A stretch of 64,000 nucleotides of DNA from a virus. The translations under genes were made by a program, and so were the position numbers. The notes below the pieces were generated by a model. It did not search any database. It was not told the DNA's origin and saw nothing but the letters and a program-made list of their open reading frames with translations. This document shows, piece by piece, positions 12,779 to 63,300 of this stretch. Each line of letters starts with the position of its first letter. Position 1 is the stretch's first letter. Where the stretch lies: UHGV virus genome UHGV-0168042; one strand, given 5' to 3'.

Positions 12779-12912
12779 GGTTAAGCCCTAAATTCGGGCG
12801 CGGCGTGAAGGTTCTTTTGACGGGCTAACAATACCTACTTTGTGATTTAGTCAATAGGTTTAGTAAAATAAAATATATTAACACGCATGTTGTTATGTGA
12901 TTTAATTTTAGT

Positions 12913-12926
12913 TTTCTAACACAAAT
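12913..12926. promoter_or_regulatory. TTTTCTAACACAAA operator-like motif, 10 bp upstream of the 12937 start
   Basis: Member of the dispersed TGTTAGAAA / TTTCTAACA family (see findings). Confidence 0.4.
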
Positions 12927-12936
12927 CATTAGAGTT

Positions 12937-13329
12937 ATGGCGTATCGAATCTTTGTTTCGTATAAAAATGGCGCTAAGAGCCACTCTCTGAACACAACAA
13001 GTCGCTTTCTTGTTGAGGCGCAGTTGGCATCAATTCTTGCCGAAAGTGAGATACTCTCGCTCGCTGAACGGATCGTTATCCAGTTTTCTGGTAGAGATAT
13101 ACTCAATGTCCCCGCTCTCACCCCGGCCTCCGAAGTTATGGAATCAATTAAATGGCCTGTATGCGGATGTCCTGCCAGGGTTGAAGAACCGGTAACTGCA
13201 ACGCTCTACATGCCGAAAGCTGTAAGAGATTGGCTTGCTATGGTTGGCAATGGGAAAGTCAGTGCTGGACTTCGCAAGTTAATTGAAATGGCAGATATTC
13301 CTGAGTTAAAAAATGCATGGCGACAATGA
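12937..13329 (+). CDS. Hypothetical protein (130 aa)
   Basis: Complete ORF with ATG start directly after the operator-like motif. Confidence 0.5.
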   Translation: MAYRIFVSYKNGAKSHSLNTTSRFLVEAQLASILAESEILSLAERIVIQFSGRDILNVPALTPASEVMESIKWPVCGCPARVEEPVTATLYMPKAVRDWLAMVGNGKVSAGLRKLIEMADIPELKNAWRQ

Positions 13330-13345
13330 GTAAACAAGGGACAAA

Positions 13346-13804
13346 ATGAGTCACGTTAACCCATCAAAAACACAATATCGCTTAATGCTGGCGATCGCGT
13401 CAGCTATACCAACCAGCCTGAATCCCCCGGCAGGCTATCCCACTGTTGTTGATGATTGTTTTCAGTATTACGGAGAAGACATCCTGAGCCAGTCAAAAGC
13501 GCTCAAGCAGTTATGTAAGGCAGGTATTCTTCACTGTATCGGAGATCCGGACGATTTTGTTGTTATGCTGGCGGATCGTGACTCTTTTCTACTGTCCTGG
13601 AAAGCTGGTGCGCGCGAAGCACGTTTGGGGAATGGTATTGGTTACATAGACTATAGCGATTGTCCGCTGGCATTTGCTGGTGGATATATGCATTGGCATG
13701 AGCGAAATAGGGGCCGTCAGCGTCAGTATCGTTTGAGTGACTTTAACGTCTGTCACGGTTTCGAAGAAGCTGACAGCCAGGACATCTGGCTTCAGGAGCC
13801 TTGA
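13346..13804 (+). CDS. Hypothetical protein (152 aa)
   Basis: Complete ORF, co-oriented and 16 bp downstream of 12937-13329. Confidence 0.5.
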   Translation: MSHVNPSKTQYRLMLAIASAIPTSLNPPAGYPTVVDDCFQYYGEDILSQSKALKQLCKAGILHCIGDPDDFVVMLADRDSFLLSWKAGAREARLGNGIGYIDYSDCPLAFAGGYMHWHERNRGRQRQYRLSDFNVCHGFEEADSQDIWLQEP

Positions 13805-14124
13805 TCCCCCTTCCCTTCCCAAATCTCCCTGTTTCTTTGGTTATTCAGTGCGTTTCGTTGGTTGCATTCGTCGATCGTGCTGAATAACTGTTCAGCGTAT
13901 GTCGGATACTTGTTTAACAGCACTGGCGTGTCTTCTGGCACTAAACAAGGGGAGTAATCAATCAGATTTGCCTGCGGCCTGCTGGTGGCTTCTACGGTAA
14001 TTTTCACTGGCACGCTGGTTGATGGCTTTTGCCCGTTCCCGCTGCATCCTGATAACGTCATCAGGCACACGCACATCGTTAATCCCAGCACGGCGTAACG
14101 CATTTTCAAGGCGAGTGATTTCAT
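13792..14124 (-). CDS. Rz1-like outer-membrane lipoprotein spanin (o-spanin), overlapping the 3' end of the i-spanin in another frame
   Basis: Lipobox LSGC after a signal peptide, Pro-rich mature part, C-terminal Cys; the 167-bp out-of-frame overlap is the classic overlapped spanin architecture. Confidence 0.5.
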   Translation of the reverse strand: MKSLALKMRYAVLGLTMCVCLMTLSGCSGNGQKPSTSVPVKITVEATSRPQANLIDYSPCLVPEDTPVLLNKYPTYAEQLFSTIDECNQRNALNNQRNREIWEGKGDQGS

Positions 14125-14431
14125 TCTGGCTTTCCTCCCGTTGTTTGATTAGGTTGGCATTCAGTTCTGCTGTTTTGCGCTGGTACTCCTTTTCCAGTGC
14201 TTTAATTCTTTCGTTTTCGGTCAGCATGGCTGAGCGAGCGTTCTCACTTAACTGTAATGCGGTAGAAAGCGTGTTGTTCGTGCTTTCCAGTTGTGATTTT
14301 GAGTCTTCAAGCGATCGGACATACCTGATGTGTTCGATAACTGCCGTCGTTGTTCGGTAAATTCCAGAAATGGCTAAAAGCGCAATTACAATCAAAATTA
14401 TCTTTTTCAAAACCATCCTCTTCAGGTTCAT
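13958..14431 (-). CDS. Rz-like inner-membrane spanin (i-spanin)
   Basis: N-terminal TM segment (KKIILIVIALLAISGIY) followed by a long periplasmic coiled coil. Confidence 0.55.
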   Translation of the reverse strand: MNLKRMVLKKIILIVIALLAISGIYRTTTAVIEHIRYVRSLEDSKSQLESTNNTLSTALQLSENARSAMLTENERIKALEKEYQRKTAELNANLIKQREESQNEITRLENALRRAGINDVRVPDDVIRMQRERAKAINQRASENYRRSHQQAAGKSD

Positions 14432-14486
14432 TTTTGGTGTTAAACATGTGCCAATTCACATCCTTTTGTGTTCCTAAGTGGTGTTG

Positions 14487-61273: not shown

Positions 61274-61829
61274 CCTCTCACTCCATTATTTAACGAATAA
61301 AAAAGCTGCGGTGCCTGGTGCCTCCAGGTGACGTTAACCAGTTAACAATTAACGCCGGGATGTTTGACTTAACCACTAAGGAGGATTGTTTTAACTGTTC
61401 CGCGTGCGCAATGGGACGGTTTTCAAGACTGCTTGAGCACCATGCTCCCTACTCTCCCGTTATTGTGGCGACCGGTGCTGATCTCCGGCTTGCGGTTATT
61501 TCAGACTCTCACGGGCGTTTAATTGCCCCGCCGAACAGCTCTTTTCCGCAATAGCTGCAATGTCTTTCGCGCATCAGCCTGCGCATTCACCACAATGTTG
61601 AGAACACTGGTTGTCACGCTGCAACGCAACATTTATTCATAGATTGGGATATGACCCCGTTACGCCAGTGTTCTCAACGTTGTAGTGCCGGTTACGGTTC
61701 CGGCCAGGCCTCTTCCTCAACGGGGTGTTCTCCATACGGACTACCGTTTATTGGTCGTTCCTGCGGTTTATGTTGTGAAGCCAGATGCTTATCTTCTGGT
61801 TGCTTCAAAGAGCTGCACTTCATCACAAC

Positions 61830-61903
61830 GGTAAGGGTACTTCGTAGGGATTCGAACCCTCTGCCAAGCACGGCGATCTCCGACGTCGCAAAATACCCTT
61901 ACC
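61830..61903 (-). other. tRNA-like element with T-arm motif (AGGGTTCGAATCCCT) and 10-bp complementary termini but non-canonical fold
   Basis: GGTAAGGGTA ... TACCCTTACC termini; no canonical D-arm; about 8 extra nt between T-stem and acceptor strand. Confidence 0.3.
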
Positions 61904-61911
61904 TGTTGTGT

Positions 61912-61987
61912 TGGTGCCGGTTAACGGACTCGAACCGCTGACATCCTGCTTACAAGGCAGGCGCTCTACCAACTGAGCTAAACCGGC
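61912..61987 (-). tRNA. tRNA-Thr (UGU)
   Basis: GCCGGTT-TA-GCTCAGTTGGTAGAGC-G-CCTGC-CTTGTAA-GCAGG-ATGTC-AGCGG-TTCGAGT-CCGTT-AACCGGC-A-CCA; CCA encoded. Confidence 0.85.
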
Positions 61988-61989
61988 AT

Positions 61990-62065
61990 TGGCGATGGTG
62001 GGTGGATTCGAACCACCGACCGACAGCTTAGAAGGCTGCTGCTCTATCCTACTGAGCTACACCAT
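61990..62065 (-). tRNA. tRNA-Arg (UCU)
   Basis: GATGGTG-TA-GCTCAGTAGGATAGAGC-A-GCAGC-CTTCTAA-GCTGT-CGGTC-GGTGG-TTCGAAT-CCACC-CACCATC-G-CCA; 2 nt from tRNA-Thr. Confidence 0.85.
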
Positions 62066-63132
62066 CACTTGCCGGGTACGTCTCCGGCGAGGGCTTCCAC
62101 CTCCGTATGCTTTTCGGCGCACCGCGCCCTGGCTGCAATTCGGTAACAGGGGATGCACAACCCTGGCTTCCAGCGTGATTAGCGCCTTCAGCATGACGGG
62201 ATATACCCGTAGTAGGATGTTATCCCAGAAAGCCATTAATCAATGGCTGTTACGCGGGAGGGACGTAACAGGTAAGGGCGCTGACCAGAAAGACCTGACC
62301 CTTCTCATTCATCTGGTTAATCACACCAGCGCCCTTGCCTGTTATGCCTCCCCGTTCCCTAATACACAGACGGGGACACTCTGCGGTCGATTTTTTGACG
62401 GGGGACGACTCATACCCCGTGGCGTCTGGCTTCTTAGGCCGCTACCATCATCAGATCATCGTTTGCATTTACTTTAATGGTCAGTTTATAAACCGCCGCA
62501 AAGTCGCTAACCATGACGAAAACCCTAAAAAAGCCCACCCGAAGATGGGCAAATACGCTACATCTCACACAAGAAAGAAGCCGACTGCCTGAGCTGGATT
62601 CACTTTCAAATGCCCGCTGAAAGGGATCACAAGTCGGCTTCTTTCTTGATGCGGCACTCTCTCCGCCCGTCACCGCTCTGTCTCGGTTGTCGCGTTTGCC
62701 ACGCCAGCCGTAACGAGGTTTAAAGTCTTTGCACGTTTCCATCACTCGACTGCCGTCTGTGGCTGTTCGTTGCAGCGGGGGTGCCTCCCCCTGGGGATAT
62801 CCCCGGCCTTACCCCATTCTTTCAAGACACAATGCAAGGCCACATCCGCATAGGTGCATTACCGCAACATTAAGGAGACTCAGGGCAAAAGGTAACCGCC
62901 ACAAAAATCCCTATGCCTCCTTAATGTTGAAGATGTGCATTGATGATTAGATGCAGCATGTACCGTTACTCTCTGCCGGACCATCATCAATAAACACCTT
63001 AAAAAGGCCTTCCGTGGCTCAACATGTATTGTCGTTTACTCCGCAAAGTGCTCTCTCTGAAACCACTTTCCGCACTAAACCTGCTGAACTTTGGCCTGCA
63101 CGGTGCCAAAGCGTGCTCTTGCGTTACTATAC

Positions 63133-63143
63133 TTTTCTAACAC
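63133..63143. promoter_or_regulatory. Operator-like motif TTTTCTAACAC
   Basis: Motif family member in ORF-poor region; further copy at 63290-63300. Confidence 0.35.
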
Positions 63144-63300
63144 TTTAATTTGTTAAATGCTGGTGGGCGAACAATAACCAATAAGTGACTATCAAGCCCA
63201 GCAAGCGAAACGTGGGTACCGCCCACCAGCAAGGAAAATTCTATGTTAAGTTACCTTCACAATCAATACATTCGAATTGTGATTTTAGATTTCTAACACA

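Follow-up and report, generated by a model that had tools for sequence, protein, structure and literature searches.

The virus genome UHGV-0168042, of which a stretch of 64,000 nucleotides (nt; the window) was analyzed here, carries a short operator-like motif that recurs across its non-coding DNA, raising the question of what this motif is and which protein would recognize it. Judged from its sequence, the window is a D6-like P1-family plasmid prophage: its first 25 kilobases (kb) are ~93% alignable to Escherichia phage D6 (MF356679) at 97% identity, and the c1-pac region matches D6 at 98% identity. The gene map was made by transferring D6 genes with tblastn, and 14.5% of the window was classed as non-coding. 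The motif most probably represents the operator set of the D6-type C1 repressor (54144-55181), and hence the immunity network of the prophage, a reading to which we assign a probability of about 80% and for which we infer binding by analogy with P1.

A dispersed, asymmetric site in non-coding DNA

The initial annotation had described a dispersed palindromic motif at ten or more sites. All of the sites it listed are present, and together they amount to 15 copies at 11 non-coding loci, given below with the presumed repressor gene. Scores are from the matrix described after the list, with leave-one-out scores in brackets, and distances are in nt or base pairs (bp).

12904-12923, plus strand: single site, AATTTTAGTTTTCTAACACA, 29.6 bits (28.6); between the major capsid gene (start 12778, minus strand) and orf52-orf53, 13 nt before the orf52 ATG (12937)
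23527-23560: paired site, 34-bp palindrome TGTGTTAGAAAATACATATTAATTATCTAACACA, 23.8 + 26.6 bits, offset 14; same in D6; 11 nt upstream of the rdgC/hrdC ATG (23515, minus strand) of the rdgC-dmt operon; position of P1 Odmt (Op68)
34990-35009, minus strand: single site, 26.9 bits; 3' of the ref stop codon, which it overlaps by a few bases; upstream of orf86-orf85, an isrK-like RNA, C4 RNA, icd and the antirepressor gene; position of P1 Oc4 (Op51)
35627-35660: paired site, 17.9 + 28.2 bits, offset 14; between the divergent ref (ATG 35580, minus strand) and the orf88...ppp operon (ATG 35701, plus strand); position of P1 Oref
40881-40914: paired site, 16.6 + 27.3 bits, offset 14; between the ppp stop codon and the pdcB ATG (40955), 40 nt upstream of pdcB
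52704-52723, minus strand: single site, 27.1 bits; overlaps by a few bases the stop codon of dre, a cre homologue; 56 nt upstream of the orf117 ATG (52647) of the orf117-orf116-dut operon
54025-54044, plus strand: distal c1 site, degenerate, core TTCTAAAA, 17.1 bits (9.0)
54114-54133, minus strand: proximal c1 site, 23.6 bits; ends 10 nt before the c1 ATG, directly upstream of the ribosome-binding site
54144-55181, plus strand: c1, 345 amino acids, P1/P7 C1 family, D6 type; presumed binder of the sites
58547-58580: paired site, 26.1 + 22.7 bits, offset 14; directly after the orf5 stop codon, 75 nt upstream of the lpa ATG (58471, minus strand) of lpa-pacA-pacB; position of P1 Olpa (Op94)
63125-63144, plus strand: single site, 19.0 bits (11.1); same in D6, with orthologues in the relatives L008 and L009; in an unannotated 1.2-kb spacer from pmgS to the tRNA genes, ~95 nt downstream of a predicted minus-strand promoter
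63281-63300, plus strand: single site, 26.4 bits; abuts the pmgS stop codon, 15 nt upstream of the -35 of the best promoter-like element of the region (63266-63238, minus strand; TTGATT-17-TAGAAT)

The site is asymmetric, ~18-20 bp long, and has the consensus found in full at 12904-12923. When the 15 oriented copies were aligned, the information was concentrated in TTTTCTAACA, accompanied by a weaker arm that reads ATTTTAG. The word TGTTAGAA occurred nine times relative to 1.66 expected, a count reached in none of 100 shuffles, and it fell within the top three non-coding 8-mers in an unbiased ranking. All nine copies are non-coding (binomial p ~3e-8), rather than spread at similar density through coding DNA. 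A 20-nt matrix built from the 15 oriented copies scored these sites at 16.6-29.6 bits, compared to 0.5 bits for the 99.9th percentile of the background and 14.6 bits for the next-best match. The sequence CATTTTTAATTTCTAACTGG at 28230-28249 (14.6 bits), inside an orf73-like gene that is just 39% identical to D6 orf73, was set aside as a chance occurrence, as about one match of at least 13 bits is expected per 64 kb and D6 lacks it.

Seven loci hold a single site and four hold a 34-bp palindromic pair. The pairs share one geometry, in which two sites overlap by 6 nt in their AT-rich arms and are offset by 14 nt, giving 14 bp between the 8-mers and 22 bp between the CTAAC cores in every case (4/4); the spacer had previously been put at 11-16 bp. 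No partner half-site was found for any of the seven single sites at the pair geometry or at nearby ones, and therefore the basic unit is the asymmetric single site and not, as first proposed, the palindrome.

The sites at 12904, 34990, 52704 and 54025 are co-directional with transcription, those at 54114, 63125 and 63281 are opposed to it, and the four pairs are palindromic. Apart from the overlaps with the ref and dre stop codons, the earlier statement that every instance is intergenic holds. The distance to the start codon, given as usually 10-50 nt, is 10-76 nt at eight loci, ~200 nt at the c4-icd-ant region and ~1 kb at the tRNA genes. Six sites lie directly 3' of a co-directional stop codon (ref, dre, orf5, pmgS, ppp and gp5).

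Predicted sigma-70 elements overlap or abut most sites, with -35 or -10 hexamers inside or against those at orf88, pdcB, lpa, the c4 region and the tRNA operon. The pair at 35627-35660, which contains a -35-like TTGATT with a -10-like TAATAT immediately beyond it, is the sole conserved block of the ref-orf88 spacer in an alignment with a Shigella dysenteriae relative. In the same relative the pair at 40881-40914, overlapped by the predicted promoter TTGATT-17-TATTTT, has been kept despite an adjacent, unrelated 47-bp insertion. A perfect TATAAT (58550-58545, minus strand) overlaps the outer edge of 58547-58580, and the promoter-like element at 63266-63238, directed at tRNA-Arg, tRNA-Thr, tRNA-Met and onward, is flanked by the sites 63281-63300 and 63125-63144.

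The two sites before c1 are convergent, with cores 81 bp apart (the sites 89 bp), and bracket the c1 promoter region. Although the distal one is degenerate, its block GGTTTTCTAAA is conserved in relatives, and its orthologue in L009, L010 and L011 has the full consensus (TTTTTCTAACA). In the proximal site, TATGTTAGAAAA is conserved in all relatives examined; by analogy, this is presumed to be the autoregulatory operator equivalent to P1 Op99.

Evidence linking the sites to C1

The product of 54144-55181, which the initial annotation had offered as a candidate repressor, is the c1 product of D6: it is 99.4% identical to D6 orf1, annotated as "prophage repressor, similar to P1 gene C1". Sequence comparison identifies it as a remote homologue of P1 C1 (21% identity over 240 residues, E 6e-6). 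A search of 1.84 billion proteins with a D6-type C1 profile returned 84 clusters only, with the P1 C1 cluster at E 6.5e-6. Homologues of the protein bear the Pfam domain PF27008 (Phage_P7_repressor_C1); a Pfam search of C1 itself, in a copy of Pfam without the PF27008 model, gave no match, nor did a sequence search of the PDB. The gene lies between dre/rox and pacB, which is the syntenic immC position, from a cre-like recombinase to pacB.

The C1 operators annotated in the P1 record are Oref, Omat, Ossb, Oc4, OrepL, Orlf, Odmt, Oban, O26, Oppp, OpmgR, OpmgT and Olpa. Sites in the window occur at the equivalents of Oref, Odmt, Oc4, Olpa, the c1 operators and Oban, the match being one of position only. 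Odmt, for example, is annotated upstream of uhr-hrdC-dmt in P1, the distance to lpa is 71 nt for P1 Olpa and 75 nt for the window site, and the position of 63281-63300 resembles that of Oban (Op72) at the head of the tRNA/tci/ban operon. This agreement with the P1 operator set supports the earlier suggestion of a multi-operator network like that of P1 C1.

The window-trained matrix was also applied to the 31.8 kb of D6 that lie beyond the window. It found three sites of at least 20 bits (D6 positions 10314, 21259 and 22465) compared to 0.014 expected, all intergenic and located upstream of repL (OrepL), upstream of a second c4-icd-ant region (Oc4) and between pmgR and pmgS (OpmgR), bringing the total to 15 sites in the window and three to four in the rest of D6. 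In relatives the TTTTCTAACA core is found at the same positions, namely in the S. dysenteriae plasmid (C1 69.5% identical), in a prophage remnant on plasmid pK91 (68%) and in three metagenomic or sequence-archive contigs (51, 48 and 44%). Among the positions conserved are both convergent c1 sites, the one that follows the recombinase gene and the one that precedes lpa, while the spacer DNA around them has diverged, and the 14-nt offset of the paired sites is also preserved. The site after the recombinase gene is retained in pK91, the S. dysenteriae plasmid, L009, L010 and L011.

The motif appears to be specific to this lineage. The matrix gave nothing of at least 14 bits in P1, and the P1 operator ATTGCTCTAATAAATTT had no match in the window with up to three mismatches. 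A scan of IMG/VR for the pair pattern returned 71 loci, 25 of them D6-like with several full-length sites each and 46 of them single chance matches on unrelated viral contigs; multi-copy full-length sites were thus restricted to D6-like contigs. Plasmids with a C1 that is 29-31% identical are without the D6 site, and the same positions bear TAGATTCTAAGGCTTTT in Leclercia (pE1_003, L007) or GAAAATCTAAGR in Pantoea (pPA-MXU-90, L084). Both motifs are dispersed and non-coding, and the Pantoea copies include two overlapping palindromic pairs beside a pmgS-like gene. Another sequence considered as the Leclercia operator, GTGATCAC, was dropped in favor of the TCTAAG motif because it occurs within coding DNA and within TGATCA clusters of the kind seen in pac/Dam-type repeats. 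The pentamer TCTAA is common to all four C1 lineages and is followed by T in P1, by C in D6 and by G in Leclercia and Pantoea, suggesting that specificity follows a simple code built on an invariant TCTAA core. The claim of a specificity distinct from that of P1 is therefore borne out in that neither element contains the operator of the other, and needs amending in that the core is common to both.

Several observations weigh against assigning the sites to C1 or against its parallel with P1. The assignment draws on analogy, synteny and co-occurrence. The similarity of the P1 and D6 operators over the whole matrix is no better than that of column-shuffled controls (p = 0.46), and the shared TCTAA core rests on the recurrence of the pentamer in four lineages and not on the matrix statistic. 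Promoter predictions are weak consensus matches, and a stricter scan places few promoters at the sites. The sites at 63125 and 63281 face against the presumed transcription and are far from any gene start. Finally, tblastn searches of D6 and the window with P1 Coi and Lxc returned nothing below E 0.3, although such small, fast-evolving proteins could evade detection, and the dre-c1 spacer is too small for a coi-like open reading frame (ORF). The circuit is therefore not a copy of that in P1, and modulation of C1 probably runs only via the two c4-icd-antirepressor modules.

Given that the link between C1 and the sites is indirect, another D6-encoded regulator, for instance from one of the hypothetical genes, might bind them, with C1 acting elsewhere. 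The pK91 remnant leaves some room for this, as along with the motif it keeps orf116, orf117, dut and dre, so that co-retention is not unique to c1. We consider it improbable, however, because every relative examined has two sites around its c1 promoter, the layout of the sites follows that of the C1 operators in P1, each change of C1 lineage is accompanied by a change of motif, and no alternative motif of like distribution is found among the enriched non-coding 8-mers. A promoter element shared by early genes, read by RNA polymerase or a phage activator, is slightly less probable again. On the reverse strand TGnTAGAAA does resemble an extended -10, and four of the five single sites with a clear target face the same way as the gene, but the hexamer has no conserved final T, four loci are palindromic pairs, the sites at 54114, 63125 and 63281 oppose the presumed transcription, and the distance to the start codon varies from 10 nt to 1 kb. 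The P1 late-activator box AAGTNACTT is also unrelated, and the equivalent element in P1 is an experimentally established operator (PMC8546580).

If C1 does bind the sites, it could do so mainly to set orientation-dependent roadblocks to transcription or even replication, as in models of L5 stoperators and Tus-Ter, instead of occluding promoters. The six sites placed directly after a co-directional stop codon, a position that several P1 operators share, and the resemblance of the repressor model to Tus, a polar fork barrier, would fit such a role. As the leading mode of action it is nevertheless about as improbable as a different regulator, since the sites overlap predicted promoters as well and run both with and against transcription, and the documented mode in P1 is promoter repression; a roadblock function complements C1-mediated repression rather than excluding it. 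Two further readings, an AT-rich word that recurs by chance and remnants of a small mobile element, can be all but dismissed. The non-coding DNA here is AT-rich, and a relaxed 16-base version of the pair pattern did match singly on the 46 unrelated contigs, yet the observed count was beyond all shuffles with every copy non-coding, the out-of-sample matches in D6 far exceeded expectation, and the core is kept at orthologous positions across diverged relatives without shared flanks.

Proposed mode of repression and comparison with known systems

Under the C1 reading, one C1 molecule would occupy each asymmetric site, as a Tus-like fold would allow, and two would sit on each pair. The cores of a pair are 22 bp apart, or about two helical turns, and the two molecules would thus lie on the same helix face. 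Bound C1 would occlude the promoter elements that overlap or abut a site and, because many sites directly follow a stop codon, would probably also stop read-through from the upstream gene. In the lysogen this would silence ref, rdgC-dmt, the antirepressor region, the tRNA operon and several operons whose function is unknown. It would also silence lpa, the activator of the late genes, and with it every late gene. The two convergent sites around the c1 promoter would provide autoregulation, possibly via looping, and immunity specificity would come from the bases that flank the family-wide TCTAA core.

In many respects this arrangement parallels the C1 system of P1 and P7, an experimentally established kind of system in P1 (PMC8546580). 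The repressors are homologous and encoded at the same genome position. Each system has over ten asymmetric sites of 17-20 bp scattered through non-coding DNA; most are single, some are paired, and they often lie immediately 3' of a stop codon. The two systems share the targets ref, hrdC-dmt, c4-icd-ant, repL, pmgR/S, lpa, c1 and the tRNA operon, and both possess a C4 antisense RNA, icd, an antirepressor and the TCTAA core. They differ in the recognition sequence, which is TTAGTTTTCTAACAC for the D6 type and the operator given above for P1, and in the repressors, which are only 21% identical, the D6 type having a helical extension of ~95 residues at its C terminus. Paired cores are 22 bp apart here and 12 bp apart in P1 Oban, and D6 has two immI-type regions and, as described, no detected Coi or Lxc homologue.

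D6 has long been known to be heteroimmune to P1, and a different operator is therefore expected. In the older P1 literature, one C1 molecule was reported per asymmetric site. A more distant parallel is gp71 of mycobacteriophage L5, a helix-turn-helix protein that acts at operators and ~30 "stoperators", which are 13-bp sites strictly oriented with transcription, and that is believed to bind as a monomer. The two systems are alike in having one repressor and many asymmetric sites across the genome in short intergenic gaps. Unlike the stoperators, the sites described here are of mixed orientation, and the modeled repressor fold is different.

Within C1, the conserved core spans residues 5-245, and residues 250-345 form long helices specific to the D6 clade. 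An AlphaFold model built from a 52-sequence alignment had a mean predicted local distance difference test score (pLDDT) of 94.2 and a predicted template modeling score (pTM) of 0.78, and its best structural match was Tus bound to Ter DNA. Tus is a monomer on an asymmetric site of ~21-23 bp, which is how a protein recognizing the asymmetric C1 operators would be expected to act. A link to Tus at the level of sequence was dropped, as comparison of sequence profiles with hhalign was not significant (probability 0.24% with eight sequences and 4.3% with 52). In this weak alignment the near-invariant R157 and R159, on a predicted beta-strand, lie opposite the KIKR strand of Tus. The modeled fold is compatible with a monomer clamping an asymmetric site, and we treat it as a lead, not a result.

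From the model we tentatively propose, at somewhat less than even odds, that the C1-family repressors of P1, P7, D6 and relatives share the Tus fold and act as monomeric clamps on asymmetric ~20-bp sites, with a common TCTAA core and with flanking bases that set immunity specificity (the base next to the core being T, C or G in the three classes). A literature search for a connection between C1 and Tus found no paper, with most of the older P1 literature outside the search. If the proposal is true, a Tus-like C1 would explain the long-known oddity of asymmetric P1 operators, would link the enterobacterial Tus-Ter fork trap to a repressor family of phage-plasmids, and would make C1-operator complexes possible polar roadblocks. 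It would also provide a structural hypothesis for a repressor family for which the PDB sequence search found no solved structure.

The kind of system described here is known from P1, and the parts most likely to be new are the TCTAA core, common to the lineages and followed by a variable base, and the proposed Tus-like fold. In the D6 GenBank records, rox and cix sites are annotated but operators are not. Full-text literature searches found no mention of the motif strings; the primary D6 genome and immC papers were outside these searches. Within that scope, the D6-type recognition sequence is neither annotated nor described. The operator map indicates which genes would be silent in the lysogen and expressed upon induction, among them ref, lpa and the genes for the methylase, the antirepressors and the phage tRNAs, and it would explain heteroimmunity to P1. 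The site sequences could serve in reporters, decoys or engineering. Phage-plasmids of the D6 type are common in E. coli, Salmonella and Shigella, and 149 PLSDB plasmids encode this type of repressor, some of them together with resistance genes. One example is the Salmonella Typhi plasmid pK91 (L006), a conjugative multiresistance plasmid (qnrS1, blaTEM-1, sul2, tetA) with a D6-like prophage remnant that consists of hot, humD, phd/doc, dut, dre, c1 and a truncated pacB, and in which c1 and two operator-like sites are intact.

Accessory RNAs and other features of the window

Several RNA genes, all on the minus strand, are associated with the antirepressor and tRNA regions.

34245-34332, minus strand: C4 antisense RNA gene, Rfam RF01695, 76.7 bits, E 3e-13; downstream of the operator-like site 34990-35009
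34377-34455, minus strand: homologue of the Hfq-binding small RNA isrK, Rfam, 59.4 bits; directly upstream of the C4 RNA
59999-60074, minus strand: tRNA-Met (CAT), ARAGORN and Rfam in agreement
61912-61987, minus strand: tRNA-Thr (TGT), ARAGORN and Rfam in agreement
61990-62066, minus strand: tRNA-Arg (TCT), ARAGORN and Rfam in agreement

The immI-type module comprises the C4 RNA, icd and a Rha/KilA-type antirepressor at 33037-34190, and the upstream site 34990-35009. As for the tRNA genes, the D6 GenBank record places them on the plus strand and lists a partly different set (Ser?, Thr, Asn). From the end of tRNA-Arg to the pmgS stop codon (62067-63300), ~1.2 kb contain no convincing ORF. Besides the minus-strand promoter-like element (63266-63238) and two operator-like sites, this stretch contains a strong terminator-like hairpin (62550-62533, minus strand). 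The stretch 62067-63300, in which no Rfam family reached threshold, may encode a small RNA, by analogy with the dicF-like region that follows Oban in P1.

A second recurrent word, AAATCACA (reverse complement TGTGATTT), is present in 11 copies in the window, seven of which are non-coding (4210, 12841, 12896, 26819, 31511, 54054 and 63278). All seven are aimed at a downstream gene, these being pmgB/sit, the major capsid gene (twice), gp7, mat, c1 and the tRNA operon, and the word is often followed by a -10-like hexamer ~6 nt on. It is a candidate for the D6-type late (Lpa-dependent) promoter box, unlike the box of P1. The operator-like motif itself was rejected as a late-promoter element, as the -22 boxes of P1 late promoters are unrelated to it and only one such box occurs in the window (30494-30512).

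The dmt gene at 20338-22753 is a full-length P1-type gene with 95.7% nucleotide identity to P1; D6 has, instead, a split dmt together with dcm. The P1-like stretch ends within rdgC, and the upstream operator 23527-23560 therefore remains D6-type, making this boundary a mosaic joint that would leave the gene under the resident repressor. Elsewhere in the window, seven copies of TGAGGGCAA(A/T)T with ~22 bp spacing, at 4416-4515, 5358 and 5586, flank a repA-like gene (4547-5299) and are probably replication iterons.

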